DNA of 64,000 nucleotides from Eubacteriales bacterium (GCA_045657105.1 JAZOSN010000059.1:196-64195); one strand, 5' to 3'. Shown: positions 791 through 24,992, numbered from the stretch's first letter. Numbers and translations: made by a program. The notes: a model not told the origin generated them from the letters alone.

Positions 791-1072
791 TTAAAACAGA
801 CTTTGAAGTCCGCCCATAAGGAGCCACATCACAAAGAATGCCGCCGCGACAAGTCCCATGACCACTATCATCGGGAGAAGCATCACCTTCACGCTCGAAA
901 AATAGGTCCTGAGATGCTCAAAGACCTTAGGTCTTTGCCTCTCGTCCGGATTTTTTCTTTTTCTGAATTTCCTCGTTTCATCAAGCCCTGACATATCGAA
1001 CACCGTCGAGCCGTCGTCAATGTAAACGATCTTTTCCTTTTTTGGCTTCTTCTTTCTTTCCTTATCAGGCAT
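791..1072 (-). CDS. Small basic tail-anchored membrane protein (93 aa), function unknown
   Basis: ATG at 1072 overlaps the oppF stop (ATGCCTGA). [14 protein letters not shown]... is a Lys/Arg-rich N-terminus, with one C-terminal TM helix (VMLLPMIVVMGLVAAAFFVMWLLMGG). I shortened the longer ORF-track start at 1132 to this ATG. Confidence 0.5.
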   Translation of the reverse strand: MPDKERKKKPKKEKIVYIDDGSTVFDMSGLDETRKFRKRKNPDERQRPKVFEHLRTYFSSVKVMLLPMIVVMGLVAAAFFVMWLLMGGLQSLF

Positions 1073-2165
1073 TGTTATCCGCCTTATCTGCAAGCATATG
1101 GCAAGCCGCGAAATGTCCCTCGCCGTATTCACGGTACTCGGGAGTTATATGACGGCATTTCTCGGTTGCATGAGGGCAACGCGTATGGAAACGGCAACCC
1201 TTCGGGGGATTTGCGGGAGAAGGAATATCACCGCTAAGCACGATACGGTTCATCTTTACGTCGGGATTCGGGTTAGGAATTGCCGAGAAGAGAGCCTTCG
1301 TATAGGGGTGAAGCGGATTTGCAAAAATATCCTTCTTGTTTCCGAACTCCATCATCGCGCCGAGATACATAACGCCGATCTTATCCGAAATGAACTTAAC
1401 TACCGACAGATCGTGAGAAATGAAGAGATAAGTCAGGTTCATCGACTTTTGAAGATCTTTAAGCAGATTGATGATCTGTGCCTGAATAGATACGTCAAGC
1501 GCCGAAACCGGCTCGTCACAGATAACAAGCTGAGGATTTACCGAAAGTGCTCTTGCAATACATATTCTCTGACGCTGACCGCCCGAGAACTCGTGAGGAT
1601 ATCTCTCGAAGTAGTAATCGCGAAGTCCGCACTTTTCCATAAGATCCATAACGTAATCCTTGACCTGACTTGGCGGAACGATCTTATGAACCTTTACAGG
1701 CTCGGAAAGAATGTCGCCGACGGTGCTTCTCGGAGGAAGCGAGGAATACGGATCCTGGAATATTATCTGCATTTTGGTACGTATCGAGCGCATCTGCGCC
1801 TTACTGAAATTTGTTATATCCTGTCCGCCGAAGAATATCTTTCCTCCGTCAGAGGGATAAAGCTTCAGAACGGTACGTCCCATAGTGGTCTTTCCGCAAC
1901 CCGACTCGCCAACGATACCGAGGGTTTCACCGGGCTTCAGCTTAAAGGAAACGTCATCGACCGCAACGAGGTTTTGAAGCACCTTTCCGGTAAAGCTCTT
2001 CTTTATAGGGAAGCACTTTCTGAGGTGTCTTACCTCGAGAAGCGCGTCAGGATCGAGCGGTTTTTTCATATCCTCTTCGATCTGAGCCTTGCGAGCGGCG
2101 CTTTCCTCGGCGGCGATCTTTTCATCGTCGTATATAAAATTTTCGTCTTTTATAATATCTGACAT
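1065..2165 (-). CDS. oppF: Oligopeptide/dipeptide ABC transporter ATP-binding protein (OppF type)
   Basis: Walker [10 protein letters not shown], signature FSGGQRQR, Walker B LVICDEP. C-terminal Cys/His-rich Opp-type extension ([14 protein letters not shown]...AACH). ATG with AGGAGG RBS. Confidence 0.9.
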
Positions 2166-2166
2166 A

Positions 2167-3399
2167 TTACTCGGTCGCCTCCTTTTCGCCTTCGCTGTAA
2201 AGATGGCAAGCTACATAGTGTGTGGGGCTTACCTGTATCATTCCGGGATAATCTCCCGAGCATTTTGCTATGCATTTAGAGCATCTTTCCTTGAAATAGC
2301 AGTAGGAAGGCATATTTACGGGGTTAGGTACGTTTCCGGGAATATTGAAAAGTGCGTCCTCGTCCGAGTCCATCGTGGGCTTCGATTTTTGAAGTCCTAT
2401 CGTGTATGGATGCATCGGATTATGGAATATTTCCGAAACGGTTCCCCTCTCGATAACTCTTCCCGCATACATAACGACAACGTAATCCGCCATTTCGGCG
2501 ATAATTCCGAGGTCGTGAGTAATGAGAAGCACTGCGCCGTTGATTTTATGTTTAAGATCGCGGAGCAGATCGAGTATCTGAGCCTGTATAGTAACGTCGA
2601 GAGCGGTCGTGGGCTCGTCGGCAATTATGAGTCGGGGGTTGCAGGCAAGCGCCATCGAGATCATAACTCTCTGTCGCATACCTCCCGATAGCTCGTGCGG
2701 ATAGGATTTATAAACACGCTCGGGAGCGGCAATTCCGACAAGCTCGAGCATCTCTATCGACTTAGCCTTTGCCATTTCGCGAGTCGCGCCCGGCACGTGG
2801 ATAAAGGTCACCTCGTCGAGCTGTTCACCTATTGTGAACACAGGATTTAGCGATGTCATCGGCTCCTGGAATATCATAGACACCTGTCTGCCGCGAATAC
2901 GGTGTATTTCTTTTATCGGCATCTCTGCGATGTCATATACCTTTTCCTCTGTTTCTGCATTTACAAGAGGATTTCCCTTCTTATCACGCTTATAATCGCT
3001 CGATGCGAAGCGGATATGACCGGAAACTATCTGTCCCTGAGGACCTTGGAGAAGTCGCATTACCGACATACTCGTAACCGATTTTCCGCAGCCCGATTCT
3101 CCGACGACTCCGACGGTCGAGCCCTTCGGAACCTCAAAGGAAACTCCGTTTACCGCCTTGACTATACCCTGATCGGTGAAGAAATAGGTGTGAAGATCCT
3201 CGATTTCGAGAATATTGTCGGGATTTTTCATTTCGGTAACGAACTCGCTCTCGTCTGCACGGCGATATTTGCGGCTTTCGAGCTCACGCATTATCTTGGC
3301 GTTAGCCTTAGCGATAGCGCGGACCTCGCGTCCCGAAAGATAGTGACTCTTAGGCTTCGACTGGGTGGCCGAAGCGTTGTTTTCGTTTTTCTTTTTCAT
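2167..3399 (-). CDS. oppD: Oligopeptide/dipeptide ABC transporter ATP-binding protein (OppD type)
   Basis: Walker A GESGCGKS, signature LSGGMRQR, Walker [14 protein letters not shown]-terminal [14 protein letters not shown]...ACH. I placed the start at ATG 3399 (GGAGG 8 nt upstream). The ORF track extends to a GTG at 3408. Confidence 0.9.
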
Positions 3400-3404
3400 C
3401 GCCG

Positions 3405-4481
3405 TCACCTCCTCATCTTGGGGTCGAGCGCATCACGCAGTCCGTCGCCCACAAAGTTGAATCCGAGAACTGCAAGTATAATGCATATTCCGGGAGGTCC
3501 CCAGACGTTAAAGAAGTTCTGGAGAATGTTTTGGTCGGAAGCGATAATATTTATCATCGTTCCCCACGCTGCATAAGGTGCTCTTACACCCATATTAAGG
3601 TAGGAAAGCGATGCCTCGTAAAGTATCATACTACCAAGACTGAGCGTCATCGACACGATAAGCTGAGGCATTACGTTCGGAATAAGGTGCTTGAATATCT
3701 TACGCTTTACCGAATATCCCATAGCCTCTGCCGCTACCATATACTCCTGCTCGCGGAGCGAGAGTATCTGTCCTCTTACAAGACGTGCCGTTCCCGGCCA
3801 CGAGAAGAGCGTCAGATAAGCCATAAGATAGTAGATACGATGCTGCGACGGAACCTCTGCCGAATCAAGCAAAGTACCTATTATAAGAAGTATCGGAAAT
3901 CCGGGAAGACATATAAGTATATCACAAAGTCGCATTATAATATCATCGACTATTCCGCCGAAATATCCCGCAATTCCGCCGAATATAACGCCGAATATCG
4001 TGATTGCAAATACGGCTATAAAGCTTACCGTAAGCGATATTTTTCCGCCGTACATAAGTCTTGTAAAGACATCTCTGCCGTCCTTATCGGTACCGAGAAT
4101 GTGGTCTGCGCTCGGCGCGGCAAGAGAATTCAGAGGCTTCGTGGTTTCGACGACCTGATACATAGTATAGGTTTCGCCGTCCTTTTCATAGGTGACCTCG
4201 GCATACGTATAATCGATCTTTCCCGACATATCCTGCTCGGTTTCTCCCCACTGTGTAAACACGAGCGGTCCTACCCAACAGAATACGAAAAGTCCGACTA
4301 TCATTACGAGTCCGACGATACTGAGCTTCGAGCGGAAAAATCTGCGAAGCACCATTCGCATCGGGGACATAAGGCGTACGTTTTTATCAAGAGGCGCATT
4401 TTCTTCTTCGCTCTGAGCTACTGCCGTAACGTTTTTTACGGTTTCAATCTGAGCTTCGGTGTTTTCATTACGATTGTCCAT
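3405..4481 (-). CDS. oppC: Oligopeptide ABC transporter permease (OppC type)
   Basis: Multi-TM BPD-transporter permease pattern (EYMVAAEAMGYSVKRKIFKHLIPN) with a long N-terminal extension. ATG with AAGGAGG RBS. Confidence 0.9.
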   Translation of the reverse strand: MDNRNENTEAQIETVKNVTAVAQSEEENAPLDKNVRLMSPMRMVLRRFFRSKLSIVGLVMIVGLFVFCWVGPLVFTQWGETEQDMSGKIDYTYAEVTYEKDGETYTMYQVVETTKPLNSLAAPSADHILGTDKDGRDVFTRLMYGGKISLTVSFIAVFAITIFGVIFGGIAGYFGGIVDDIIMRLCDILICLPGFPILLIIGTLLDSAEVPSQHRIYYLMAYLTLFSWPGTARLVRGQILSLREQEYMVAAEAMGYSVKRKIFKHLIPNVMPQLIVSMTLSLGSMILYEASLSYLNMGVRAPYAAWGTMINIIASDQNILQNFFNVWGPPGICIILAVLGFNFVGDGLRDALDPKMRR

Positions 4482-4496
4482 TTTCTGCCGCCTCCT

Positions 4497-5489
4497 TTAT
4501 TTAAGTTTAACTCTGGGGTCAACTATAACGTACATAAGGTCGGCAAGCAGGATTCCCATTACGCTGAGCAGCGCAAGGAACATATTATATCCCATGATAA
4601 AGGGAATATCCGCTTCTATCATTGCCTTGTATGCAACGTTACCTATACCGGGCAGGTCAAAGACCTGCTCGGTAATTATAGCACCCGAGAAGAGCGAGGG
4701 GAGAAGTCCCGCAAGGTTGGTAACGAGCGGTATCAGAGTGTTTCTGAACGCGTGCTTATATACCACCTTGCTCTCTTTAAGGCCCTTTGCGCGGGCCGTT
4801 CTGACATAGTCAGAGTTCATAACCTCGAGCATTTCGGTTCTGGTCATTCTCATTCTTGCACCGATACTGAGTATTACTACGGTAAGTATCGGTATAAAGA
4901 GGTGACTCAGATAGTCGAGTATTTTTTCAAATCCAACGTAAGACTGCGTTGCATTTTCAAGTCCTGTTGGCGGGAACCAACCGAGCTCCATCGCAAGAAC
5001 GTCTTTGAGCATCTGTCCGAAGAAGAAGGACGGAAGCGATATTCCTATCATAACGAGGATAGTTACGACGTAGTCGCGTATCGAATACTGGTGTGTTGCC
5101 GCGGTGATACCGAGCGGTATCGCTATCATAAACTCGAAAAGCGTTGCTATAAGAGCGACCGCAAACGATACGCCCATATGATCTCTTATAACGTCGATTA
5201 CCGGAACTCCGTATTTAAAGCTCGTTCCGAAATCAAACCGACACAGTGACGCCAGCCAGTTTCCGTATCCTTTAAGAATACCGAGAAAGCTGTTATCTTC
5301 AAGACCGTATAGCTTTTTCATGCTTTCGATGGTTTCTTCGGGGATAGTCGCGCCGCCCTGGTTCATCGCAGCTATCTTACTGTCGATGAAGCTGACGGGC
5401 ATACATCTGACCAGAATATATATGATAAGCGACACGCCGAGCAGGATAAGCACTGCAAGCGCAAGTCTTTTAATTATATACTTTAACAT
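4497..5489 (-). CDS. oppB: Oligopeptide ABC transporter permease (OppB type)
   Basis: MLKYIIKRLALAVLILLGVSLIIYILVR..., the classical OppB/DppB N-terminus, with the motif YVRTARAKGLKESKVVYKHAFRN. Confidence 0.9.
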   Translation of the reverse strand: MLKYIIKRLALAVLILLGVSLIIYILVRCMPVSFIDSKIAAMNQGGATIPEETIESMKKLYGLEDNSFLGILKGYGNWLASLCRFDFGTSFKYGVPVIDVIRDHMGVSFAVALIATLFEFMIAIPLGITAATHQYSIRDYVVTILVMIGISLPSFFFGQMLKDVLAMELGWFPPTGLENATQSYVGFEKILDYLSHLFIPILTVVILSIGARMRMTRTEMLEVMNSDYVRTARAKGLKESKVVYKHAFRNTLIPLVTNLAGLLPSLFSGAIITEQVFDLPGIGNVAYKAMIEADIPFIMGYNMFLALLSVMGILLADLMYVIVDPRVKLK

Positions 5490-5504
5490 TAGTTATCGTC
5501 CTGT

Positions 5505-8102
5505 TCAGTCTGCAAATTCGATTTCCCAGATGTGGTCAAGGGGAGAAGTATAGGGATTAAGCTCTGCCTGTGTGGGAAGCGTAGATGTCTTGATTACCTT
5601 TGCATTGTAAGCATAAAGTACCATACGCTGATATACGGGAAGCTCAACTGCAAGGTCAAGAACGTATCCCATAGCCTCTTCGTAAAGCTCTCTGCGCTCG
5701 TCCTGATCCTCGGTTTCTCTTGCTTCGTCGATGACGTTACTGAGCTTATTGAGGATACTGTTTTCCTCGAAGTACGTACTGGTATCGTTGAGAATTTCGC
5801 GGTAGCCCCAAGCAAGGGTACTGGTCGCGCTCGAATTCTTGTGATATACCTGATACATATCGGGGTCGATCGTCGAGCCCCAAGCCGCCGCCCATACTGC
5901 GAGCGATCCGGTACTGAGCTTGGTAAGAGCCTGAGTATCGGGAACTACCTCGATGTCCCAACCGCATTCGTTGAGAAGCTCTGCCGCGCTCTGGAAGGTC
6001 TGATAGGTCGGGTGGTCGGTGAGGTTAGCACCTGCGATGGTGAACTTGATTTTAAGCTGAGCATCGCCTGCTACGACGCCTGCCTTTTGCATATAGTCCT
6101 CGATAGACTCCTTGGCGTCGGCTCTGTTGAATACGAGAGCAGGATAATCGTGATAGTTATCACGGCTGTTGTTACCCGAATCGTCCTTCGGATATGCCCA
6201 GCTTACGGTGGACATCGGCCAGTAGATGGTTTCTGCCATACCGGTACTGTAATAGCTGAGCGCAAGGCTTGTGTTCATCGCGCACATAATAGCCTTACGG
6301 ATATTGATGTTCGGAACCTTTCCTGCATTGATACCGATATAACCGTAACCGAGCTGATCGGTGTAGGTCTTTTCGATACCCTCGGATTTAAGTCCGTTGA
6401 TCTTGTCAATGTTGTCCTGAGTGAACTGAGGAGTTACGAAGTGAACCGTTCCGCTTTCGAGAGCGTTAAGTGCGTTGGACGCGCTAACTACCTGATAACG
6501 GAGCTTTTCGATCTTGGGAGTACCAAGAAGGAAGTTGGGGTTTGCCTTGAAATATACGATGTTATTACTGAAAAATTCAGTAGTCTTAGGATCGTCCGCG
6601 TTAGCGCTGTTAGTTACCTTGTAGGGACCTGCGCCTACGGGAAGCTTAACGTTTCTGGGGGACTGGATAACGTCGGTCATAAAGTCGAACGAGCCGTACT
6701 CTACGCCGAACTGATTATTTTCAATATCAACGGTATATCCGGGAGCGTAGTAGTGCTGGGGCGCTACCGAGAATGCGAAGTTCCAGATAGCCTTCGGGTC
6801 AACGCCGTTAATGGTTATCTGAAGAACGTCGTACTCGTCAGATGCCTTGGTCGTACCGTCTGCATTATGCTCCTGTGCGATCTTGTAGGTGTTGTTTCCT
6901 ACGTTTATCGAGGTAAGGTCGGTACTATGTCCGAGAGAAACGATGCCCGAGATATTTTCAACTGCAAGCTTTCCGTCCTTTACGTTTTCACGGAGAAGAA
7001 CTTCCTTAGCCTTTGCGGTGTACTCGGTGGTAAGAGTCTGAGCGGTAGCCCAGTAGCGAAGGATCTGATGAAGCTCCTGTTCAATCTTCGAGCCGTAAAC
7101 GTACTCGATAGCCGAAGCCTTATCCTTAACGACGTCGGTGCTGTAATGTCTGATTACTTCCTTGATCTTGGACTTGATGTCCTTGTTGTTTTCGTCCTTT
7201 TCGTATTTGATCTCGACGTAGCCCTCTGCATACATGAAGGAGGTTACCTCGTCAAATTCGCCGGTCGACTTGTAGGGCTCTTCGATGTAAGCCTCTTTCG
7301 AGCTTACGTAGTCGGTTTCGAGCTCTTCCTTGAAGAGCTTGAGAGTGTACTCGTAGTCCTCGCGGAGCTGTTCTCTATACCACTCATCATCATAGTTCTC
7401 GTTTCCGGTAGCAACTGCCTTCTTATATCCCGAGCTGGGTGCATGCTTGGAGATCGCGTCGATCATTTTATCGTAATTCGCACTGTATCCGCTCTGCTGC
7501 TTACCTACTGTCATATAGAGGTTGATAAGCTCGTTTATACGGTCCTCTGCTCTTGCGCCCGCGGTTTCGGAAATAGCGTCGTCTGTTCCGGAGGAGCTCG
7601 ATCCGAGAGTCTGGGTTCTGTAATTCTGAAGACCTACTATATCGGTCGAATACATGGTGGAAGATCCGGTATAAACGGGATCAAGATAAACGTAGAGATT
7701 GAAGAGAACGTCGTTCATCGTGAGCGGCTTGCCGTCAGAGAACTTGATTCCGTTCTTGATAACGAAGGTGTATACGGTGGTATCGTTACCCTCGTTGCGA
7801 GCTATCGAGTAGTCCTTTACTACGACTGCCTCGTTATCACCGCAAGCAACGACCACCTCGCCGTTTTCATAGCCTGTGGTGAGCATACCGATCTGAGTCA
7901 TCGCAACGATGGTTCCGTCGGCTGCGGTCGTCGAGAAGAAGGGGTTGAAAAGTCCGTCGAGGTCCTCGGTCATTATAACGAGGGCGTCCGGTCTTTGTGT
8001 CTGTCCGTCACCGTCACCGCCTTTTTTACAGCCGGTCACGTTGACTGCAACTCCCATGCACATAATAGCGCAAAGAAGAAGTGCAATAATTCTTTTTTTC
8101 AT
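5505..8102 (-). CDS. oppA: Family-5 (OppA-like) extracellular solute-binding lipoprotein, unusually large (865 aa)
   Basis: Signal peptide plus lipobox (VNVTGC). SBP_bac_5-like N- and C-lobes (GPYKV..., WGSTIDPDMYQVYH). First gene of the transporter block, 16 nt downstream of the preceding lipoprotein gene. Confidence 0.85.
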   Translation of the reverse strand: MKKRIIALLLCAIMCMGVAVNVTGCKKGGDGDGQTQRPDALVIMTEDLDGLFNPFFSTTAADGTIVAMTQIGMLTTGYENGEVVVACGDNEAVVVKDYSIARNEGNDTTVYTFVIKNGIKFSDGKPLTMNDVLFNLYVYLDPVYTGSSTMYSTDIVGLQNYRTQTLGSSSSGTDDAISETAGARAEDRINELINLYMTVGKQQSGYSANYDKMIDAISKHAPSSGYKKAVATGNENYDDEWYREQLREDYEYTLKLFKEELETDYVSSKEAYIEEPYKSTGEFDEVTSFMYAEGYVEIKYEKDENNKDIKSKIKEVIRHYSTDVVKDKASAIEYVYGSKIEQELHQILRYWATAQTLTTEYTAKAKEVLLRENVKDGKLAVENISGIVSLGHSTDLTSINVGNNTYKIAQEHNADGTTKASDEYDVLQITINGVDPKAIWNFAFSVAPQHYYAPGYTVDIENNQFGVEYGSFDFMTDVIQSPRNVKLPVGAGPYKVTNSANADDPKTTEFFSNNIVYFKANPNFLLGTPKIEKLRYQVVSASNALNALESGTVHFVTPQFTQDNIDKINGLKSEGIEKTYTDQLGYGYIGINAGKVPNINIRKAIMCAMNTSLALSYYSTGMAETIYWPMSTVSWAYPKDDSGNNSRDNYHDYPALVFNRADAKESIEDYMQKAGVVAGDAQLKIKFTIAGANLTDHPTYQTFQSAAELLNECGWDIEVVPDTQALTKLSTGSLAVWAAAWGSTIDPDMYQVYHKNSSATSTLAWGYREILNDTSTYFEENSILNKLSNVIDEARETEDQDERRELYEEAMGYVLDLAVELPVYQRMVLYAYNAKVIKTSTLPTQAELNPYTSPLDHIWEIEFAD

Positions 8103-8118
8103 ATTTATATCCTCCTAT

Positions 8119-9510
8119 TTATGTACCTGATAATTCGGCAAAGGTGAGCGTTACGCTTCCGCTTTCTCTGTCAACGTCCACCGTTATCTTCGCTTCATCT
8201 CCGTCTATCTCGCAGTCGATAGAGGAAATATCGAGCTGTCCGTTGTAGCCCGTTCCGAAGAGAAGTCCTACGACGTACTCCTTTTGAGGGAAGCATTCCT
8301 CGCCGACGACTATCTTACCCGATATTGTAACGTCGTCAAGGATCATATCGGGCGAAGCTTTTCCTGCAAGAAGACCAAACGATGCGCCCGCTATACGCGA
8401 TCCTGCTTTAAGCGTGTAGGTTATATTTTCAAACTCAATATTTTTAAATTCCGCACCACTTTCGAGTACAGCGAAAAGCCCGCCTTCCTTGCTCGAAATG
8501 TTGCCCTGAATTACCGAAACGTTCGATATTTTATACTTGTTTCCGTCTGCCGAGTAAAATCCGCCCTTGAAGCTTCCGCCGGAGAATGCGCTCGGCCATA
8601 CCTCGCCCTTAAAATCGAGGTCTGCACTGATAAGATAGTGTCCGTCGAGATCGGCTATCTTATAGAGCTGATTTGCATTTGAGATCTTGTACCAGTCACC
8701 GTCAAGCCAAGTGGTGTAGAGCTTTATAGTCTGAGTGAGAGTAGTGCCGTTTTCATAGTCAACGTCACCTTTCAGGTTCGCGGGAGCTATCTCGGTCATC
8801 TGCTCGTCGAGATAGACCTTGTCCAGTGTTTTTCCCTCGATCTCGGGGAAACGCTTCATATCGAGCTTGCCCGTCTTTTCGTTCCACTCGGGAAGAACGA
8901 GCTCAATTGCCGAAACGCTTTCGAGCTTTTCGAAGTGTCCGTCTGCGCCGGGCGCGTAAATTTCGTAATTAACGTATGGGATCCACGCCGCGTAAAGCGT
9001 CATAACGCTTTCCTCGGAGGAATATTCTCTGCTCGGATCGACCTTCAAAAGATCGTTTTCGAAGTCCCAGAGTCCTGAATAAACGTATCCCTGCTCTCTG
9101 CCCGACTGTGAGGTGGGAATTCCGAACTCGTCGAGAGCGTTTCCGTTTTCGTCAACGCGTGCCTCGCGTCTTGAATACCAACCCGCGAAGAAATATCCGT
9201 TTTTCGATATTCCGAACGCCTTGTCCTCACGGCTCGGATTATCGGGGGCAATAAGAGGAGTTACTCTGTTGCCGTCTGCGTCCTGCTTCATACTGCCGAT
9301 GTTAAAGACGTCTATAACATAAACGTCCTCCGGACTGTTTGCGAACGAGCCGCCGTTTGCGTCATATCTGACGCTTACCGTATATCCGTCCTTATCGAGC
9401 GTTTTATACGGAGTTTTCCACTGCGCGCAGGCTGTAAAACAGCCTGCCGCAGCAAGGATCAAAGCAAGTGCGAAAACCCACTTTATCCTTATGATCATCT
9501 TATTTTTCAT
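8119..9510 (-). CDS. Lipoprotein with a Listeria-Bacteroides-repeat-like (Flg_new) segment and a GLUG-motif-like C-terminal domain
   Basis: Start taken at ATG 9510 (MKNKMIIRIKWVFALALILAAAGC, lipobox AAGC). It overlaps the protease stop by 11 nt. KNGYFFAGWYSR resembles the Flg_new repeat. GGLFAVLESGAEFKNIEF and SFGLLAGKAS resemble GLUG motifs. Domain names are by eye only. Confidence 0.6.
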   Translation of the reverse strand: MKNKMIIRIKWVFALALILAAAGCFTACAQWKTPYKTLDKDGYTVSVRYDANGGSFANSPEDVYVIDVFNIGSMKQDADGNRVTPLIAPDNPSREDKAFGISKNGYFFAGWYSRREARVDENGNALDEFGIPTSQSGREQGYVYSGLWDFENDLLKVDPSREYSSEESVMTLYAAWIPYVNYEIYAPGADGHFEKLESVSAIELVLPEWNEKTGKLDMKRFPEIEGKTLDKVYLDEQMTEIAPANLKGDVDYENGTTLTQTIKLYTTWLDGDWYKISNANQLYKIADLDGHYLISADLDFKGEVWPSAFSGGSFKGGFYSADGNKYKISNVSVIQGNISSKEGGLFAVLESGAEFKNIEFENITYTLKAGSRIAGASFGLLAGKASPDMILDDVTISGKIVVGEECFPQKEYVVGLLFGTGYNGQLDISSIDCEIDGDEAKITVDVDRESGSVTLTFAELSGT

Positions 9511-16837: not shown

Positions 16838-16931
16838 TTTAGTTTCCTTTCGATCTATATACTTTTATTTATATACCTTATTTTTCACTTTCACGCTTTC
16901 GTGTGTAAAAGTAAATATGCATAACCATTCT

Positions 16932-16960
16932 ATTTTAACACACCTCACGTTTTTTTGCAA
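16932..16960 (-). promoter_or_regulatory. Promoter candidate for the protease-opp operon
   Basis: Minus strand: TTGCAA (16960-16955), 17-nt spacer, TG-n-TAAAAT (-10 at 16937-16932), about 95 nt upstream of ATG 16837. Confidence 0.35.
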
Positions 16961-17012
16961 GTCTTTTTTTAGAAAAACTACAATATTATAAATTAAATAT
17001 TTGTGAATTCTA

Positions 17013-17041
17013 TTGATTTTCACAAAATATTGTGGTATTAT
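17013..17041 (+). promoter_or_regulatory. Promoter candidate for the lipoprotein operon
   Basis: TTGATT (17013-17018), 17-nt spacer, TGgTATTAT (extended -10; -10 at 17036-17041). Flanked and overlapped by the inverted repeat TTGTGAA...TTCACAA (17001-17027). Confidence 0.4.
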
Positions 17042-17127
17042 TATTCTGGTTATTTACTTCTATGCCCCGGAAAAGCTACTGATTTTCCTGCGGCAAGCGT
17101 AAAAATATATTTATAGGAGAAACAAAT

Positions 17128-20004
17128 ATGAAGAAAACCACAACGGTACGCGCTATACTCGCGTTACTGCTGCTTGCTTCGATGCTCTTCTCGATGCTCT
17201 GCGCGTGCACGGGCGGCTCGGACAACAATGATGATAACGGATCGGGTGATCCCTCGACAAATCCGGACACACCTTCTCAGGGAGAAGGTCCCGACGATCC
17301 CGACGGCGGAGAGCCGACTGTCAAGGTCGAATACTCGATAAAGGTTCTCTCGGCAGGCGGACTTGCTCTTGATAAAGTAAAGGTTTACGTTTATGCAGAC
17401 GATACGCTTGACGACCTTGAAGGCTTTGCCGAAACAAACGCGGACGGCGTAGCTACGATGAAGCTTCCGAAAAAGTCGGCGTACAGCGCGGTGCTCACCG
17501 GCGTTCCCGAAGGATATGACGTTGCAAAATCTTACGCTATTACCGGCACGTTCACCTCTATCACGCTCACCTCTGCGGTAATAAAGAGCGAGAGCCTCGC
17601 AGGAGTCAGCTACGAGCTCGGCTCGGTAATGCACGATTTCAGCGTTATCACAAGAGATGGCGAAAACGTCCGTCTTTCCGAGCTTCTCAAAGAAAAGAAG
17701 GCAGTAATGCTCAATTTCTGGTTCACGACTTGTACGTGGTGCTTAAAAGAATTCCCCTATATGGCATCGGCATACGAGAAGTTCAAGGACGATATTGAAA
17801 TACTCGCTATGAACCACACCGACACCGAGGACGACATCGACATGTTTGAGGCTATGTACGGACTCGATCCGCTTCCTTTCCCCAAGGTTAGGGACTACAC
17901 TCAACTGAAAAGCGCATTCAGTATAGGCAACTACCCCACATCTGTAATAATCGACCGTTACGGCGTAATTTGCCTTATCGAGGTCGGCGGCGTCCCCTCT
18001 GCGGAGCCCTTTGAAAAAGCCTTTGAATATTTCTCGGCAGACAACTACACTCAGAAGCTCTTTGCGAACATTTCCGAGCTCACTCCGATAGAAAAACCTA
18101 CCGTTGATATGCCCTCCTCCGATGAGATCGGCGGAGTATTCAACAAGGGCGAGATCGAGGTTACCTACCGTCCCGAAACCGAAGAGGGCGCGTCCGAATC
18201 CGCTTGGCCCTTCGTGATCGGCGAAAAGAACGGCGTTTCCTGCATTATGAGCTCAAACGCCGGCAAATCCTCGACTTTTGCTATTATGTATGCAGACGTT
18301 ACTCTCAAAAAGGGACAGGCGCTTGCATTTGACTACATTTCTTCGTCCGAGCGCGGCGCAGACGCTCTCGTCATTATCGTTGACGGCGAGGACATTTATC
18401 AGATCTCGGGCGTCGGTGAAAACTGGTCTACCTGTTATCCCTACGTTGCAACCGAGGACGGTACTTACGAGGTAGCCTTCGTTTATATGAAGGACTCGAC
18501 CACAAACGAAGGAGATGACAGAGTATATCTCAAAGATCTCCGCGTAGTTTCCGAGGCAGACGTTGACTCTCCTACTTATATTCCGAGAAACGCGGCAACC
18601 AATCCCGATGAATTCGGCTTCTCATACCAGGATTACGTAACTCCCGTTTTCAACGAAAAAGACGGCTACTACCACGTAAACGACAAAAACGGTCCCCTGC
18701 TTATTGCAAACCTTATGGGTTACACGAATTTCAGCGACTCCACAATATACAATCTTGTCTGCGATCCTACCAGTCCGGCTTACCAGTACTACGATGAAAT
18801 TCTTCCTTATTTCAGCTATGCATCAAATTCCGAGTTTAACGGCTTCTGTACCGTAAACGCCGAGCTTCGTGATATACTCGAAAGCATCGCAAACGTCGCA
18901 GGGCTCGAGCCTGAGAACCCAAATCAGTGGCTTAAGATGTGCGTTTACTACGATGCATACGGCACAAACGGAGCTCAGCTCGTTGACCCAATACGCGGTC
19001 TTGCTCCCTTCTCGGCATTCGAGGCAAAGGAAGGCAAGGACAACAGTGTAACCTACAACCGTGTTATTATGCCTCGCGGTCTGCTCTACAAATTCGTTCC
19101 TACGAGATCGGGCGCATACCGCATTACCTCTGACAGTGATTACGAGGTAAACGCTTGGATATTCCTTGAAGAGAATATCGCCGAGAACAAACCTTTCTAC
19201 ACCTATAACGGCGGCGAAAGAATGTATAACGATAGCATCAACTGCTCTATGGTAATGTATATGGAAGCGGGCAAAGCGTACTACATCGACATCGCTTACT
19301 ACGACGTATATCAGGAAGGCACCTTCACATTCGAGATTAAATATCTCGCTCCTACGACCGAGATATTCACCATCGCATCTCCAGGATTCTTCACCTACTA
19401 CGAAAATGAAAATACCGAGTCTGTAAACGAGATCATCGCAGGCGGTATCGATGTCGTTCTCGGAAGCGACGGATACTACCACGAAAAGCGTGCAGACGGA
19501 TCTCTCGGATCTGTCGTTTATGCAGATTTCGTCGGATCTACCGGAATTTTCAACAAATCCCTTACTCAGATGATAGCTCTCGGATCGTTCAATTTCGCGA
19601 TGACCGAGGGAGATCAGTACATTCTCACCTATATCGCACAGTTCTACAAGGATCTCGGCATTGATGCAGACGCTCGCCCCGCAGATCACAGAGAAGCTCT
19701 TATCACAAAGTTCAAGGAGCTTTGGGGTGACAGCTACACAGAGTACGCTTCCATCTATGAGATCGAGGACGTTATCGCAGGAATCTATCACGGCGAGGGC
19801 GAGGATCTCACCGCGCTTGCACAGAAATATGCAAATGATGCAAGCAAGGTAAATTCTCCCGCAGAGCGCGTTGGTTGCGTTGCAGTAAACGAGGAGCTCG
19901 CAGAACTCCTTCAAATCCTTATGGACAAATACACCTTCGAGGGTGTTGATACCTCTTGGAGAAAGCTCTGCTACTACTACCAGTATTTTGGACCTCAGGC
20001 GTAA
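17128..20004 (+). CDS. Multidomain lipoprotein with embedded TlpA/ResA-like thioredoxin-fold domain (958 aa)
   Basis: Signal peptide plus lipobox (FSMLCAC). Ig/CarboxypepD_reg-like domain (YSIKVLSAGGLALDKVKVYVYADD). Thioredoxin-like motif NFWFTTCTWCLKEFP (CTWC at 17731-17742). Jelly-roll-like domain. Two copies of a DGYYH...W-x-K-x-C-x-Y-Y module. Confidence 0.8.
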   Translation: MKKTTTVRAILALLLLASMLFSMLCACTGGSDNNDDNGSGDPSTNPDTPSQGEGPDDPDGGEPTVKVEYSIKVLSAGGLALDKVKVYVYADDTLDDLEGFAETNADGVATMKLPKKSAYSAVLTGVPEGYDVAKSYAITGTFTSITLTSAVIKSESLAGVSYELGSVMHDFSVITRDGENVRLSELLKEKKAVMLNFWFTTCTWCLKEFPYMASAYEKFKDDIEILAMNHTDTEDDIDMFEAMYGLDPLPFPKVRDYTQLKSAFSIGNYPTSVIIDRYGVICLIEVGGVPSAEPFEKAFEYFSADNYTQKLFANISELTPIEKPTVDMPSSDEIGGVFNKGEIEVTYRPETEEGASESAWPFVIGEKNGVSCIMSSNAGKSSTFAIMYADVTLKKGQALAFDYISSSERGADALVIIVDGEDIYQISGVGENWSTCYPYVATEDGTYEVAFVYMKDSTTNEGDDRVYLKDLRVVSEADVDSPTYIPRNAATNPDEFGFSYQDYVTPVFNEKDGYYHVNDKNGPLLIANLMGYTNFSDSTIYNLVCDPTSPAYQYYDEILPYFSYASNSEFNGFCTVNAELRDILESIANVAGLEPENPNQWLKMCVYYDAYGTNGAQLVDPIRGLAPFSAFEAKEGKDNSVTYNRVIMPRGLLYKFVPTRSGAYRITSDSDYEVNAWIFLEENIAENKPFYTYNGGERMYNDSINCSMVMYMEAGKAYYIDIAYYDVYQEGTFTFEIKYLAPTTEIFTIASPGFFTYYENENTESVNEIIAGGIDVVLGSDGYYHEKRADGSLGSVVYADFVGSTGIFNKSLTQMIALGSFNFAMTEGDQYILTYIAQFYKDLGIDADARPADHREALITKFKELWGDSYTEYASIYEIEDVIAGIYHGEGEDLTALAQKYANDASKVNSPAERVGCVAVNEELAELLQILMDKYTFEGVDTSWRKLCYYYQYFGPQA

Positions 20005-20027: not shown

Positions 20028-21323
20028 ATGAAAAACAAAACATTTAATAGGATCCTGAGCCTTGTGCTCTCTATCGCGTTCGTCCTGTCACTCTGCGTAG
20101 CATTTACCGCGTGCAAGAGCGAGGACGGCAGCTCGGACTCCGATAAAAACGACGACACGCCCAAGGGTACACTCGATTACAAGGTAAATCTCGTCAACTA
20201 TGCAGGCGAGGCGGTCAGCGACGTAGTAGTACATGTTCTAAAAAACGGAGAACAGGTCAAAATGAACGTCGCAGGTCCTACCGGATCGGTAAAATTCTCG
20301 CTTGATGCAGGAGATTACACCGTTTCTCTCGAATCGGTTGACAGTGACAAGACGTTCAGCTACGACGAGAGCTCCTGCGTTCTCAGCGCAGAGGCTCCCG
20401 AGATCACGGTAGTCCTTTATAACGGACTCGAAGAATCGGGAAACATTACGTTCACCGTGAACGATGCCGACGTCGAGTACAAGACTCACAGAGCGTCGGT
20501 CGGCGGAAGCTTTATAAAGATTCCTGCCAAAAATTCAGCGTATTTCATCTTCACTCCGGCAAAGCAAGGGCACTATAAAATATCCTCGTCCGATCCTTCG
20601 GTAAAGGTTGAATACCGCGGTGCTCCCACGTTTCCCCTTCCCTACAACGTAGCCGATATGGAAAGTGACGGATCGTTCTTCCTTAACGTCAAGGACTCCA
20701 ACATAGGAACGAACGGAACGGGCACGTCACAGTATATTATCGGTATGACGAACGAGTCGGACAGTGATATTTCCTCTGTTTTGAAGATCGAGCGCGAGGG
20801 GGATTTCGTAAGAGATATAATCGACGAGCCCTGGCAGGATATTATGCCGAAGGGCAAGCTTGAAAAGTACGTTCCCGAAACTCCTCTTACCGAAAAAATG
20901 CTCACAAGCCTTGATATCACAAGCACAGGTCTTAATGTCGTATTCAACGAAAACGACGGATATTATCACCTCGGAAGCGCAGACGGCCCTCTCGTGCTCG
21001 TCCGCATTTCGAGCGCAAGTGATCACATCGCTTCCTTTACCGAAATGTGCGAAACCGACAGACTCGGCGCGTACATTTACGACGAGGACGGCAAGTTTGC
21101 AAGAAAAGAAAGCTTCAACGAGCTTATTGCAAAATATGCCGAGATATGCGACGAGGTGACAGGCGTATGTCCTCTCGACAAGGATCTCGAATATATGATA
21201 AAGACAGTCGGCGGATACAAGGGCTGGTGGAATTACGAAGCAGGAACGCAGATATTTACCGATATTATCGTTCCCGTACAGAACGCTTGGCTCTTTGCCT
21301 GCTGCTACGTTTCGGCAAGCTAA
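20028..21323 (+). CDS. Lipoprotein paralogous to the C-terminal modules of the preceding gene (431 aa)
   Basis: Lipobox VAFTAC. Ig-like domain YKVNLVNYAGEAVSDVVVHVLKNGEQV. PPC-like segment AYFIFTPAKQGHYKISSSD. DGYYHLGSADGPLVLV module ending NAWLFACCYV. Only 23 nt downstream of the previous gene, with a GAGGA RBS. Confidence 0.7.
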   Translation: MKNKTFNRILSLVLSIAFVLSLCVAFTACKSEDGSSDSDKNDDTPKGTLDYKVNLVNYAGEAVSDVVVHVLKNGEQVKMNVAGPTGSVKFSLDAGDYTVSLESVDSDKTFSYDESSCVLSAEAPEITVVLYNGLEESGNITFTVNDADVEYKTHRASVGGSFIKIPAKNSAYFIFTPAKQGHYKISSSDPSVKVEYRGAPTFPLPYNVADMESDGSFFLNVKDSNIGTNGTGTSQYIIGMTNESDSDISSVLKIEREGDFVRDIIDEPWQDIMPKGKLEKYVPETPLTEKMLTSLDITSTGLNVVFNENDGYYHLGSADGPLVLVRISSASDHIASFTEMCETDRLGAYIYDEDGKFARKESFNELIAKYAEICDEVTGVCPLDKDLEYMIKTVGGYKGWWNYEAGTQIFTDIIVPVQNAWLFACCYVSAS

Positions 21324-21336
21324 GTTAAAAAAACGA

Positions 21337-21372
21337 AAAAATCGGTCGGATCAATCCGACCGATTTTATTTT
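21337..21372 (+). terminator. Rho-independent terminator after the second lipoprotein gene
   Basis: AAAATCGGTCGGAT-caa-TCCGACCGATTTTATTTT. Confidence 0.65.
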
Positions 21373-21446
21373 GTCAAATCGGCGTCTTTTTTTTGGATTT
21401 TAACACAAAAGTTTCATATTTTCAAAGAATTATTTTCAGAAAGCTA

Positions 21447-21475
21447 TTGTAATATCGACTGCGAAGTGGTATAAT
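21447..21475 (+). promoter_or_regulatory. Promoter candidate for the third lipoprotein gene
   Basis: TTGTAA (21447-21452), 17-nt spacer, TATAAT (21470-21475), 40 nt upstream of ATG 21515. Confidence 0.45.
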
Positions 21476-21514
21476 GTCGGTGTTCAAAAATTAAAAAATA
21501 TCAGGAGGATAAAT

Positions 21515-22273
21515 ATGAACAGTTCAGGTAGATTTACAAAACTGCTTGCTGTTATCTCGCTCATTCTTTGCTTTGCATTTATTTTCTGTGCTTGCAATAC
21601 GGCATCGGATAACGGCGACGGTGACAAGAACGACGATAAGGATAACACGACCGACGTAGGCGGCGATGACGATACCGACATCGGTGAAGGTGACGACGAT
21701 AGCGACGACGATCAGACGCCCGACGACGGCAAGATAACCTATACGGTAAACGTAAAGGACATCGACGGAAATCCCGTAGAAGGCGTCAAAATTCAGTTCT
21801 GTGTTGGCGAAAACTGCTTTACACCGGTGCTGAGTGATGCAAACGGCAAGGTCATCTGCTCTCTTGACGAAAACGATTACCACGTAACCGTTCCCTCGGA
21901 CGCGTACTCGGCAGAAAACGAAGAGTATTCCTTTGAGGAAGGCTCGACCACCCTTGACATCATCGTTTATAAGCTTCCCGACGGAAGCGCAGAGGATCCC
22001 ATTCCGGTGGTTGAGGATACTACCGCTGTCAAGGTAGGCAAGGGAGAAAAGAAGCATTATATCATCAGAAATCCCGAAGGAAGAAAGCTCACTGTAAACT
22101 GCAAGTTCGGCGTTGCGGTGCTCGAATACAACGGTCAGGTCTACGTTTCAAATAACGGCGTTATTGAGATAACACTGGTTGCAAGTGACGAAAGAACCGC
22201 AGTTGTCGCATTTTCCGCAAGAGATGATCTCGGTCAGGCATCTCCCGGACTCTTCGATATGATCCTTAGCTAA
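21515..22273 (+). CDS. Small lipoprotein with acidic linker and Ig-like domain, third member of the paralogous set (252 aa)
   Basis: Lipobox FIFCAC. Asp-rich linker (GDGDKNDDKDNTTDVGGDDDTDIGEGDDDSDDD). Ig-like YTVNVKDIDGNPVEGVKIQFCVGENCFTPVLSDANGKV. PPC-like GSAEDPIPV...KKHYIIRNPEGRKLTV. AGGAGG RBS. Confidence 0.7.
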   Translation: MNSSGRFTKLLAVISLILCFAFIFCACNTASDNGDGDKNDDKDNTTDVGGDDDTDIGEGDDDSDDDQTPDDGKITYTVNVKDIDGNPVEGVKIQFCVGENCFTPVLSDANGKVICSLDENDYHVTVPSDAYSAENEEYSFEEGSTTLDIIVYKLPDGSAEDPIPVVEDTTAVKVGKGEKKHYIIRNPEGRKLTVNCKFGVAVLEYNGQVYVSNNGVIEITLVASDERTAVVAFSARDDLGQASPGLFDMILS

Positions 22274-22276
22274 AAT

Positions 22277-22670: not shown

Positions 22671-22672
22671 AT

Positions 22673-24211
22673 TTAGTTCCCAAGCGCCTTTTCAATAGCC
22701 TCTACAAGCTCTGCCTTTTCCATCTTGGCTTCCGAGCGCGCTACGATAATACCGTCGGCGTCAACGACCACCGTCATAGGATACTGTCCCTTTCCGCCCA
22801 TAGCGAAATAGTAGCTCTCGCCCGCGTTGTTATGTCCGAACTTCATCGTGTAATTTTCAAAGCCGTGTTCGAAAATACAGAAGGTTATATCGTCCTCGCT
22901 GTCGTCTGCCGAGCATATTGCTATCATATCAATAGACACGCCCTTGTTTGTATACTCCTTATATACCTCTTCGAAATGAGGAAGCTCTTCAAGGCAGGGT
23001 TGACAGGTCGTATACCAGAAGTTTATGACCGTTATCTTTCCCTTGTTCTGCGATACGTTAAAGCTTCCCTCTCCGCCGTGAAGAATCTTTATATCCTCAC
23101 TTACGCAGATGTTTCCGATAGCGTAGCCGACTGTTGGCTCTCCGGTATCACCGCTTGGCGGCGGTGTATTTGTGACGGGTGCTTTATCAATAAAGTTGTA
23201 GTACACAAGGCTTCCGATAAGGAGCGCCGCCGCAAGCACTACCGATACGATCTTTACGGCAGTTACGCGCTTTTTGCGCTTTGCCTCGATTCTTTCCTTT
23301 TCCTCTTCGCTTGCATTTTCAGGGATCTCATTTGGCGGCAGGATTATCCTTGCGCCCTTCCACTGTATAGCGTTTGTCGGGCAGACGTCGATGCATTCAC
23401 CGCAGTTTATACACTCGTGATCGCCGACGTGACGAATATCCATCTTGCATTTACTGATGCAAAGTCCGCAGTCGATACATTTGGGCTTTTCAAGCTTTAT
23501 TCCGATAAGCGCGATCTTATTGAAAAGTCCGTAAAGCGCGCCGAGCGGACAGAAGAAACGGCAGAAGAAGCGGTAAATGAACACCGATCCTACGATAAAT
23601 ACGACCAAAAGCAGGAACTTCCAAGTAAAGAGCGGTCCGAGCAGTGAGAGCAGTCCGCTGTTTGCCTGATTCGAAAGAAGCCCGACTCCGCCTTCAAGCG
23701 TTCCCGCAGGGCAGATGTATTTACAAAAAGCGGGGATCTTGTCGCCTCTTGCGCTATATATGAGCGGTATGATTATCGCAAACACCGCAAGTATCACGTA
23801 TTTAAGATAAGAAAGAACTCTCGTTACTCTGTTTTTTTGGAGCTTCGGAGTCTTTATTTTATGTAAAAGATCCTGAATAAGTCCAAAAGGACAAAGGAAG
23901 CCGCATATCCAGCGTCCAAACAGCAGTCCGTAAAGCATAATGATTCCGAGCATATAATACGGAGCCGTCTTGTTCGCGTCGGCAAGAGCGTTTTGTAGCG
24001 CTCCGAGCGGACACGCCGCCGATGCTCCCGGGCAGGAATAGCAGTTGAGTCCGGGCGCGCACATGTTTTTTACCTTGCCGAGATAAATATATCCGTTGCC
24101 AAAGCCTTTCAGGTTGGCGTTAAAGAGCAGTGCGGCGTATAGCTGGATAAGCCTTCGCTTAAACGGCAGTTTGCTCTTTTTTGTTTTTTTGTTTTCTTTA
24201 TTTAAATTCAT
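22673..24211 (-). CDS. NapH/MauN-type membrane polyferredoxin fused through an extra TM helix to a C-terminal TlpA-like thioredoxin domain
   Basis: Four CxxCP-type motifs (CYSCPGASAACPLG, GRWICGFLCPFG, CKYICPAG, YRFFCRFFCPLG) set among TM helices. Two ferredoxin motifs (CIDCGLCISKC, CINCGECIDVCP). A Lys/Arg/Glu-rich segment, then TM VKIVSVVLAAALLIGSLVYYNF, then NFWYTTCQPCLEELP (CQPC at 22994-23005). Start taken at ATG 24211, 1 nt after the upstream stop. The ORF track uses TTG 24220. Confidence 0.8.
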   Translation of the reverse strand: MNLNKENKKTKKSKLPFKRRLIQLYAALLFNANLKGFGNGYIYLGKVKNMCAPGLNCYSCPGASAACPLGALQNALADANKTAPYYMLGIIMLYGLLFGRWICGFLCPFGLIQDLLHKIKTPKLQKNRVTRVLSYLKYVILAVFAIIIPLIYSARGDKIPAFCKYICPAGTLEGGVGLLSNQANSGLLSLLGPLFTWKFLLLVVFIVGSVFIYRFFCRFFCPLGALYGLFNKIALIGIKLEKPKCIDCGLCISKCKMDIRHVGDHECINCGECIDVCPTNAIQWKGARIILPPNEIPENASEEEKERIEAKRKKRVTAVKIVSVVLAAALLIGSLVYYNFIDKAPVTNTPPPSGDTGEPTVGYAIGNICVSEDIKILHGGEGSFNVSQNKGKITVINFWYTTCQPCLEELPHFEEVYKEYTNKGVSIDMIAICSADDSEDDITFCIFEHGFENYTMKFGHNNAGESYYFAMGGKGQYPMTVVVDADGIIVARSEAKMEKAELVEAIEKALGN

Positions 24212-24212
24212 A

Positions 24213-24992
24213 TCAGCCAAGTCCTATACATTCGGTACAAATTTTAATAGCCTTATCAAGCACGTCGCTCATTCCGCCGTTGAAAATTCCAAGCACTATA
24301 AATGCGACCGCTACGGCAAAAACAAGAGCCCTGGCGACTGCAAGAGAATAATTTTTCTTTCCCGTTGTCACCGCGATCGGCTTTATTTCCGCGCCGTTTT
24401 CTGCGGTAGCGGCGAGAGATTTTTTAAGCTCGGCTATTTCTTTGTTATAACTGTATTTTGAGTAAAACGAGAAAACCACGCCGACAGAAAAAGCAAATAC
24501 CGCACACGGCAGAAGGACCCACATAAGAGATATGATACTGCGGTTTATTTCGTCGGTAAAGCTCGACTCTTTAAAGATATACATAAAGACAGGAGCCGAC
24601 GATACCGCACAGAGTGAAAGAGCAATCGTTCTGAACATATCTCTGTCCGATGCGATCTTATCCGCTTCTTCACTGACTCCGCCTTTGTCCGCGAGCCTTG
24701 ACCGCAGTTTTGCGGCTACGCTTTTCGGATCGGGCGCAGGGCGAAGCTTCTTTTCTTCGAGCGGAAAAACAGCAGATATAACTACCGAGCCAACGAGTGC
24801 GGCAAGACAGACGACCGTCGGAACTATTATTTTTTTGAACTGTGCCGAAATACTCTCGGGCGTGAACGGGTGATCTCCGCTTTTATAGATCGTAACACAG
24901 GACACGATAAGGCAAATTCCGAGCAGGACAATAAGCACCGAAAGCGCTATGCCGTATATCAGATAAAGCCTTTCTTTATTTTTTTGTGACAT
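24213..24992 (-). CDS. Polytopic membrane protein ending in a CxxC tail (…KICTECIGLG)
   Basis: 259 aa with several hydrophobic helices. The C-terminal CTEC is at 24228-24239, immediately before the stop. Translationally coupled to the polyferredoxin gene. Confidence 0.65.
   Translation of the reverse strand: MSQKNKERLYLIYGIALSVLIVLLGICLIVSCVTIYKSGDHPFTPESISAQFKKIIVPTVVCLAALVGSVVISAVFPLEEKKLRPAPDPKSVAAKLRSRLADKGGVSEEADKIASDRDMFRTIALSLCAVSSAPVFMYIFKESSFTDEINRSIISLMWVLLPCAVFAFSVGVVFSFYSKYSYNKEIAELKKSLAATAENGAEIKPIAVTTGKKNYSLAVARALVFAVAVAFIVLGIFNGGMSDVLDKAIKICTECIGLG

Follow-up and report, generated by a model that had tools for sequence, protein, structure and literature searches.

Fermentation of protein in the gut influences how much ammonia, amines, phenols and branched-chain acids the host is exposed to, yet little is known of the ways in which abundant uncultured Firmicutes obtain protein. 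Disulfides make many gut proteins resistant to proteases. A stretch of 64,000 nucleotides (nt), called here the window, from an uncultured gut Clostridium deposited as Eubacteriales bacterium (GCA_045657105.1 JAZOSN010000059.1:196-64195) raises the question of whether disulfide reduction, proteolysis and peptide import can be encoded side by side as parts of one system. An initial annotation of the window had proposed such a protein-foraging locus between positions 791 and 24992. It comprises three gene sets: a surface S8 protease followed by a lipoprotein and an oligopeptide importer (Opp), a lipoprotein with a thioredoxin domain (the thioredoxin lipoprotein) accompanied by paralogues, and a membrane polyferredoxin-thioredoxin fusion with a CxxC-containing partner (the fusion pair). 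The block formed by these sets is kept across many species and gained or lost whole, which suggests, as far as gene context can tell, that the bacteria carrying it reduce and digest disulfide-locked proteins outside the cell.

Genes were called from a six-frame list of open reading frames (ORFs) and from Pfam and NCBIfam scans of the window proteins. Relatives were compared in a sample of 61 genomes anchored on the oversized OppA of the locus, with flanks compared by tblastn. An alignment of the thioredoxin lipoprotein was used as query against one genome per species and gave 490 relatives, the best 80 of which supplied the loci studied. A further 201 genomes, each at least 90% complete, were drawn evenly from the order and not chosen by any feature, and a class-level sample covered other orders of the class, from which five protease-bearing genomes were tested for redox genes. 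Co-occurrence is reported as counts, without a statistical test, because the relatives are not independent. The host genome is about 83% complete, and genome-wide gene negatives (CcdA/DsbD, CodY) are weakened accordingly.

Two genomes of the same genus (G002 and G006) are without all genes of the block and carry its two flanking genes about 175-200 bp apart. Alignment places the indel junctions at about 735 and about 25065 in the window, which nearly coincide with the extent first proposed; the whole set of about 24.3 kb is one presence/absence polymorphism, a single indel. Neither direct repeats nor att-like sites were seen at the junctions, so that insertion and deletion are not distinguishable. 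The left-flank marker used in the empty-site comparison is valid at the DNA level, and the gene on that side is the following:

2-583, minus strand: left flanking gene with an ATG at 583, a GGAGG ribosome-binding site and a promoter near consensus (TTGACA-17-TATTAT, 705-677), conserved in relatives

A plus-strand ORF at 2-598 (198 amino acids, aa) was rejected as the flanking gene, being the antisense shadow of this minus-strand gene. An island-less genome of the same genus contains, at G007:C22:132043-132183 (L016), a match to 53 residues of the OppA N-terminus (62% identity) in a 57-aa frame at a contig end, either a remnant or an assembly break.

The proposal was to be abandoned if synteny proved absent in relatives; instead, dozens of species keep the three gene sets linked despite at least six rearrangements. 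The best 80 relatives of the thioredoxin lipoprotein are all full-length, share 45-75% identity with it and come without exception from gut metagenome-assembled genomes (MAGs), labelled Oscillospiraceae, Eubacteriales, Acutalibacteraceae, Faecousia, Ruminococcus and similar. In these 80 loci, representing 80 species, the gene has the protease/lipoprotein/Opp set, the fusion pair or both as linked neighbours, and at least six orders and orientations are seen; fully co-directional arrangements occur (e.g., L037 and L040), and nine loci are ordered protease-Opp-thioredoxin lipoprotein. The protease, Opp or a lipoprotein of the 463-aa type found next to the protease lies within the fetched flanks of 44 of the 80. 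Where at least 9 kb is available on both sides (32 loci), the protease module is seen in 24 and the fusion pair only in four more, two of which (L101 and L107) show the start of a protease gene at the locus edge just past the fusion pair. The layout of the window is repeated in three carriers of the same genus. In another genus (G009) the fusion pair diverges directly from the protease and the thioredoxin lipoprotein follows oppF, and in another family (G043) the lipoprotein genes converge on the fusion pair, which diverges from the protease. The initial description of the locus as arranged around one divergent promoter region is therefore right for this genus and some others, whereas elsewhere the modules either share one direction or have the protease diverging from the fusion pair.

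Co-occurrence follows the same lines. The thioredoxin lipoprotein, the full-length fusion, the protease and the oversized OppA are found together in seven of the 61 relatives, and one further member of this sample (G030) has the protease and Opp and no redox genes. In the order sample of 201 genomes, exactly five have a protease orthologue, and these same five are the ones with a thioredoxin lipoprotein and with a full-length fusion; neither the 61-genome nor the 201-genome sample contains a thioredoxin lipoprotein or a full-length fusion without the protease. At the level of the class, protease orthologues occur in three further families; all five genomes tested carry a relative of the thioredoxin lipoprotein and four of the five a NapH-like gene, the genes lying within 12 kb in one genome, within 27 kb in one and on separate contigs in one.

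The protease and the importer are encoded by a minus-strand string of eight genes running from 16837 to 791 (S8 protease, lipoprotein, OppA, OppB, OppC, OppD, OppF and a small protein). ORF coordinates and Pfam/NCBIfam matches reproduce this string as it had been annotated, including its overlaps of 11 nt (9500-9510, lipoprotein start and protease stop) and 8 nt (1065-1072, small protein and oppF):

9500-16837, minus strand: S8 protease of the cell-envelope proteinase type, 2445 aa, with S8, inserted PA, Fn3-like, Big_2 and BspA-type leucine-rich repeat (LRR) domains and a C-terminal transmembrane helix (Pfam and transmembrane prediction)
8119-9510, minus strand: lipoprotein of 463 aa, lipobox Cys24, its start overlapping the protease stop by 11 nt
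5505-8102, minus strand: oversized family-5 solute-binding lipoprotein (OppA-like), 865 aa, SBP_bac_5, lipobox Cys25
4497-5489, minus strand: OppB-type permease, BPD_transp_1 and BPD_transp_1_N
3405-4481, minus strand: OppC-type permease, BPD_transp_1 and OppC_N
2167-3408, minus strand: OppD-type ATPase, ABC_tran and oligo_HPY, start codon provisional
1065-2165, minus strand: OppF-type ATPase, ABC_tran and oligo_HPY, 76-80% identity in other families
791-1072, minus strand: small tail-anchored membrane protein of 93 aa, last gene of the operon, one transmembrane helix (aa 63-81) after a K/R-rich N-terminus, no Pfam family
755-785, minus strand: intrinsic terminator closing the protease-Opp operon, 12-bp stem (6 GC pairs) followed by a T tail, within the indel and close to its left end

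The remaining gaps had been given as 1-16 nt, which agrees with junctions of 16, 15, 15 and 1 nt and leaves out a further 4-nt overlap (3405-3408) that exists provided OppD uses a GTG start. As had been claimed, the string has one strong terminator, the one at 755-785. No strong internal terminator separates the protease from opp, and the weak hits within genes, whose frequency was judged against shuffled sequence, are no commoner than in shuffles (24 vs 19.3 +/- 4.7 for terminator-like and 30 vs 22.2 +/- 4.8 for promoter-like hits). The protease-to-Opp order, the short junctions and the lack of a strong internal terminator are common to more than 40 species, and on these signs the string behaves as a single operon.

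Several of its products depart from the usual format. The SBP_bac_5 match of OppA is split into an N-terminal piece (about aa 106-166) and a remainder (aa 417-759), and orthologues in other genera measure 854-867 aa. The 463-aa lipoprotein matches no Pfam or NCBIfam family, rotamase/PrsA included, at E <= 1, and in relatives it always stands between the protease and OppA, with 32-81% identity. The 93-aa protein is kept after oppF in other families (35-40% identity). Both ATPases contain four to five Cys in the C-terminal oligo_HPY region (OppD aa 370, 376, 379, 383 and 401, range 370-401; OppF aa 324-355); C-terminal Cys clusters in some Opp/Dpp ATPases bind 4Fe-4S.

The protease combines a Peptidase_S8 domain (aa 202-673, E 1e-43) with a PA insert (aa 481-550), an fn3_5 domain (aa 712-836) and seven BspA-type stretches that form an LRR array of about 790 aa. 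Among solved structures it is closest to C5a peptidase, SpyCEP and a cell-envelope proteinase (E 1e-62 to 1e-55); it can be aligned with the first two through aa 843, the DTG, HGTH and GTSMA motifs of the triad align, and His290 and Ser611 are kept in 12 further orthologues. The protein begins with a signal peptide and ends in a transmembrane helix (aa 2367-2385) followed by a charged tail, and no LPXTG-type anchor was recognized by the family model NF040553 (253 bits vs a cut-off of 1400). Linked orthologues retain three cysteines, two of them (Cys339 and Cys355) on either side of the substrate-binding loop and the third (Cys540) within the PA domain.

To the right of the protease lie three lipoprotein genes, which, as initially described, converge on the polyferredoxin-thioredoxin pair (ORF list and Pfam/NCBIfam matches):

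17128-20004, plus strand: surface lipoprotein of 958 aa (the thioredoxin lipoprotein) with a CnaB/transthyretin-like stalk, a ResA/TlpA-type thioredoxin domain, a beta-sandwich, and a sandwich like the pre-peptidase C-terminal (PPC) domain flanked by two copies of an alpha/beta domain
20028-21323, plus strand: paralogous lipoprotein without a thioredoxin domain, 431 aa, predicted local distance difference test (pLDDT) of the model 91.8
21515-22273, plus strand: paralogous lipoprotein of 252 aa with an Ig-like/CarboxypepD_reg-like domain, weak Big_1 and CarboxypepD_reg matches, position conserved in relatives

The 958-aa protein has an AhpC-TSA/Redoxin match at aa 165-290 and is assigned by NCBIfam to the ResA subfamily. 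Cys202 and Cys205 of its CxxC motif and the cis-Pro270 are invariant in 76 sequences. In the structure model (pLDDT 88) the thioredoxin domain superposes on ResA and on a Bacillus thiol-disulfide oxidoreductase (TDOR) with TM scores of 0.87-0.90 and about 30% identity, Etrx1/2 structures are among its fold matches, and the thioredoxin and sandwich part is similar to the C-terminal region of DipZ (E 3e-11). The domain thus has the features of the ResA/TlpA/Etrx type, namely a thioredoxin fold, CxxC and cis-Pro in an exported protein tethered by a lipobox or a transmembrane helix. The thioredoxin lipoprotein alone forms more than 1,000 sequence clusters, annotated publicly only as 'redoxin family protein' or 'TlpA family protein disulfide reductase'.

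In the model of the 431-aa paralogue, aa 49-132 form a CnaB/transthyretin-like stalk (Z 12.5) and aa 130-257 resemble the pre-peptidase C-terminal/collagen-binding domain of clostridial collagenases (Z about 9); the 958-aa protein is built from these modules as well. The C-terminal alpha/beta domain (aa 290-431) is covered by none of the listed structure matches (Foldseek and VIA-align, with the whole model as query), and it has no Pfam or NCBIfam family and no usable protein atlas match; the domain was sought only within whole models, so that no new fold is claimed. One to five paralogues trail the thioredoxin lipoprotein in all but a few of the 80 loci. In other species the array holds a second thioredoxin-bearing lipoprotein (as at L091:7195-9927; 910 aa, Redoxin aa 143-267, with a prealbumin-like domain), and an extra gene of 809 aa lies at this locus between the lipoprotein array and the fusion pair (L091:10548-12977). 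Binding modules set out in arrays would suit the capture of substrates more than the mere relaying of electrons, and they go well beyond the needs of a plain redox partner.

The third gene set is the fusion pair:

22673-24220, minus strand: NapH/MauN-like membrane polyferredoxin with an extra transmembrane helix and a TlpA/ResA-type thioredoxin domain (CQPC), matching Fer4_5 twice, Fer4 and Redoxin
24213-24992, minus strand: five-transmembrane protein of 259 aa with a CD1871A-family CxxC tail (NF040920, 44.9 bits vs a cut-off of 32, aa 223-259), overlapping the fusion gene by 8 nt

The fusion contains the membrane CxxxCP motifs of Fer4_5 and two 4Fe-4S ferredoxin motifs, and scores under the cut-off of the NapH/MauN models (TIGR02163, 85.9 vs 213 bits; NapH equivalog, 62.8 vs 234). 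Its neighbours are the CxxC protein, whose gene is always upstream of the fusion gene in relatives, and the lipoproteins, with no nap or mau genes in the block. The Fe-S loop (aa 221-320) has 17 K+R vs 14 D+E, a basic segment (aa 321-339) precedes the last transmembrane helix and the thioredoxin domain after it is acidic; by the positive-inside rule the Fe-S clusters are predicted to face the cytoplasm and the thioredoxin domain the outside. Searches of the 83%-complete genome found no CcdA/DsbD (PF02683; the control was positive in 10 of 14 reference genomes), no DsbB and no VKOR, which would fit a reducing direction. In genomes of the order free of the protease island, a stand-alone NapH-like gene adjoins a tiny CD1871A-type CxxC ORF and a separate thioredoxin-like gene, as seen in the three neighbourhoods examined (L116:3382-4811, L117:4018-4967 and L118:3587-5590); the stand-alone NapH-like protein, of about 300 aa, occurs without the protease in 14 of the 201 order-sample genomes. 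The existence of this split counterpart supports the NapH-like, CxxC and thioredoxin proteins acting jointly as an electron-supply unit. A literature search returned no paper on the CD1871A family or on a NapH-thioredoxin fusion.

The following control elements are predicted for the block:

16960-16932, minus strand: promoter candidate of the protease-Opp operon, TTGCAA-17-TG-TAAAAT, extended -10, both hexamers kept in four genomes of the genus
17013-17041, plus strand: promoter candidate of the thioredoxin-lipoprotein unit, TTGATT-17-TG-TATTAT, extended -10, conserved in the genus
21338-21367, bidirectional: terminator between the second and third lipoprotein genes, 13-bp stem (6 GC pairs), both strands with T runs
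21447-21475, plus strand: promoter of the 252-aa lipoprotein gene, TTGTAA-17-TG-TATAAT
25051-25023, minus strand: predicted promoter of the CxxC-protein/fusion pair

The back-to-back promoter candidates that had been noted in the 290-bp region 16838-17127 were recovered on both strands, two of them conserved by alignment in all four genomes of the genus, together with the segment between them. The genes on the right are not the single unit first supposed, since the terminator at 21338-21367 and the separate promoters at 21447-21475 and 25051-25023 divide them into three; with the protease-Opp operon, the block would consist of four predicted transcription units, two of them back to back. Another block conserved in the genus (16886-16912) falls within the putative 5' leader of the protease transcript; with its short inverted repeat (CTTTCG..GTG..AAAG), it may serve as an operator or form a hairpin in the leader. 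Neither this block nor the rest of the divergent control region has an Rfam match, and a riboswitch or other known RNA was rejected there on this ground. Common control of both divergent units by CodY found no convincing support: a search of the 83%-complete genome detected no gene for this regulator, and the count of CodY-box-like sites is unconvincing (one 12/15 site at 17015-17029; 8 such sites in the window vs 3.9 +/- 1.8 expected). The sole Rfam match, to Gut-1 RNA (RF01706, 22319-22389, plus strand, 51.7 bits vs a gathering score of 50), falls in a spacer of 394 bp, rich in hairpins, that separates the 252-aa lipoprotein gene from the fusion gene; Gut-1 is absent from the orthologous position in the seven related loci examined, two of which belong to the same genus.

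The stretch 735-25065 may be read as a self-contained accessory block for extracellular protein foraging, built from three modules; this reading starts from what the genomes show, namely which genes and domains are present, that their linkage is conserved, that they co-occur and that they behave as a single indel. In the first module the anchored S8 protease would cut proteins at the surface, and the enlarged OppA with OppBCDF would import the peptides. In the second, surface lipoproteins would hold protein substrates, the disulfides of which would most likely be reduced by the ResA/TlpA-type CxxC domain, either before cleavage or as leftover disulfide-cross-linked peptides that are not importable as linear peptides. 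In the third, the NapH-like Fe-S protein, with its outward thioredoxin domain and its CxxC partner, would pass on cytoplasmic reducing power in place of CcdA/DsbD. We infer from the genes the direction of electron flow, the role of external proteins as thiol-disulfide clients and that of peptides as imported ligands, all three. Reduction of substrate disulfides at the surface, followed by cleavage and then by peptide import, is proposed tentatively, at a little short of an even chance.

A number of points weigh against this order of events. All carriers are uncultured MAGs, the direction of a redox reaction is not readable from sequence, and the failure to find CcdA carries little weight in a genome that is only 83% complete. 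The top NCBIfam match of OppA, the oligopeptide binder Opp4A, scores under its cut-off, which bears on the peptide specificity of the importer. In one family (f88) the modules are spread over separate contigs or over as much as 27 kb. The protease-Opp operon occurs without redox genes in G030, as does a distant protease in G126, so that reduction is not obligatory for the protease system. A serine acetyltransferase gene (cysE; 50693-51328, plus strand, 240 bits, above cut-off) and cysK, on another contig, indicate that the organism appears able to make cysteine, which makes scavenging no necessity; cysteine scavenging by an auxotroph was rejected on the presence of the two genes. The real client could also be the conserved Cys pair of the protease itself.

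This last point leads to the main rival explanation, under which the redox arm serves the machine: the thioredoxins would keep Cys339/Cys355 and Cys540 of the protease and the conserved cysteines of the lipoproteins reduced, so that contact with oxidants or substrate thiols would leave the protease active or turn it on. In the physically linked orthologues examined Cys339 is conserved in 37 of 37 and Cys355 in 38 of 38, both are also present in G011, G216, G235, G365 and G284, and the pair is broken in the redox-less orthologues (Ser/Cys in G030 and Cys/Ala in G126); the dependence is one-way, since proteases without redox genes occur and the reverse does not in the samples searched, and pneumococcal Etrx1/2, which keeps surface MsrAB2 reduced, provides a precedent (PMC3914529). 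Yet the pair is Cys/Ala in G565 and G435 despite the presence of redox genes, and the correlation may merely mirror clade membership. Moreover, a thioredoxin lipoprotein of 190 aa would suffice for maintenance, which leaves the multidomain proteins of about 950 aa and the paralogue arrays unexplained. We consider maintenance of the machine unlikely, with perhaps a chance of one in several.

A less probable account still is that the lipoprotein and redox modules constitute a separate surface system, which would travel with protease-Opp in a shared accessory island and would serve, for instance, to adhere to or remodel a polymer from the host or the diet, or to defend against disulfide-rich antimicrobial peptides. 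It would agree with the modules being distinct transcription units in the window, with their freely shuffled relative order and their dispersal in f88, and with the split NapH-like/CxxC/thioredoxin triad of protease-free genomes described above. It is hard to reconcile with the thioredoxin lipoprotein and the full-length fusion never occurring without the protease in the 61- and 201-genome samples or with a linkage that outlasts at least six rearrangements across families and orders, and the Pfam/NCBIfam scans of the block saw neither glycosidases nor Msr nor any further class of enzyme. Chance adjacency in this genome, the supra-locus being an artefact of reading, had in its favour that the proposal was first drawn from one window only; it is contradicted by the linkage conserved across dozens of species, by the co-occurrence in the genome samples searched and by the presence or absence of the block as one indel, and we regard it as extremely improbable.

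Reductive foraging can also be stated in a broader and more speculative form, as a transferable 'protein utilisation island' of uncultured gut Clostridia (Oscillospirales and neighbouring orders), comparable to a polysaccharide utilization locus (PUL), in which CcdA/DsbD-independent reduction, protease and enlarged Opp would be one hard-wired machine; we hold this to be possible and rather more doubtful than not. The multidomain thioredoxin lipoproteins, supplied with reducing power by the ferredoxin-type Fe-S membrane protein, would there capture and reduce disulfide-locked proteins of the diet or the host before cleavage and import; plant storage proteins and protease inhibitors, mucin Cys-domains, defensins and immunoglobulins are conceivable substrates. 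No paper was found in the literature on the cluster, on a protease/Opp/thioredoxin linkage or on a 'protein utilization locus'. If true, an island joining reductase, protease and importer would offer a concrete, testable route for the breakdown of disulfide-stabilised gut proteins, and would give a physiological role to an unstudied Fe-S-based pathway that moves reducing power across the membrane.

The protease-Opp operon is closest to PrtP/PrtM/Opp of lactic acid bacteria (PMC8037685), with which it shares a surface-anchored S8 protease with a PA insert and an Fn3-like domain, a five-component Opp importer (SBP_bac_5, two permeases and two ATPases) and close coupling of the protease gene to one for a lipoprotein. 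Measured against cell-envelope proteinases, the S8 triad and the PA and Fn3-like domains are present and the LPXTG/sortase (or S-layer-type) anchor is replaced by a C-terminal transmembrane anchor. Here, unlike in the lactic system, protease and importer are in one operon, the protease has a BspA-type LRR array of about 790 aa, the binding protein reaches 865 aa and a dedicated thiol-reductase arm is present; the coupled lipoprotein is without a PrsA/peptidyl-prolyl isomerase (PPIase) domain, a functional analogy being possible, and no CodY was found in the 83%-complete genome.

To our knowledge, the partners in keratin degradation have not been described as one conserved gene cluster with an importer. 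The functional idea is nevertheless alike, as disulfide reductases help S8 (subtilisin-type) keratinases by opening the cross-linked protein (PMC6906142); the habitat differs, being the anaerobic gut in the present case.

On the redox side, the tethered ResA/TlpA-fold CxxC domains on the outer face recall the CcdA/DsbD pathways (ResA, StoA, TlpA and CcmG; CcdA-Etrx1/2-MsrAB2, PMC3914529; DipZ), Etrx1/2 being likewise thioredoxin lipoproteins and DipZ sharing the thioredoxin plus beta-sandwich arrangement of its C-terminal region. The block differs from them in that no CcdA/DsbD was found and the putative conduit is the NapH-like 4Fe-4S-thioredoxin fusion with its CD1871A-type partner, in the size of the thioredoxin lipoprotein (about 950 aa, with binding modules) and in having a protease/peptide importer as genomic partner, with no cytochrome-maturation, sporulation or Msr client genes in the block. 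The conduit itself resembles the membrane ferredoxins of the NapH/MauN quinol-dehydrogenase type in its Fer4_5 CxxxCP motifs and two 4Fe-4S ferredoxin motifs, and departs from them in scoring far under the family cut-off, in the absence of Nap/Mau genes and in the fusion of an extra transmembrane helix and an exported thioredoxin domain.

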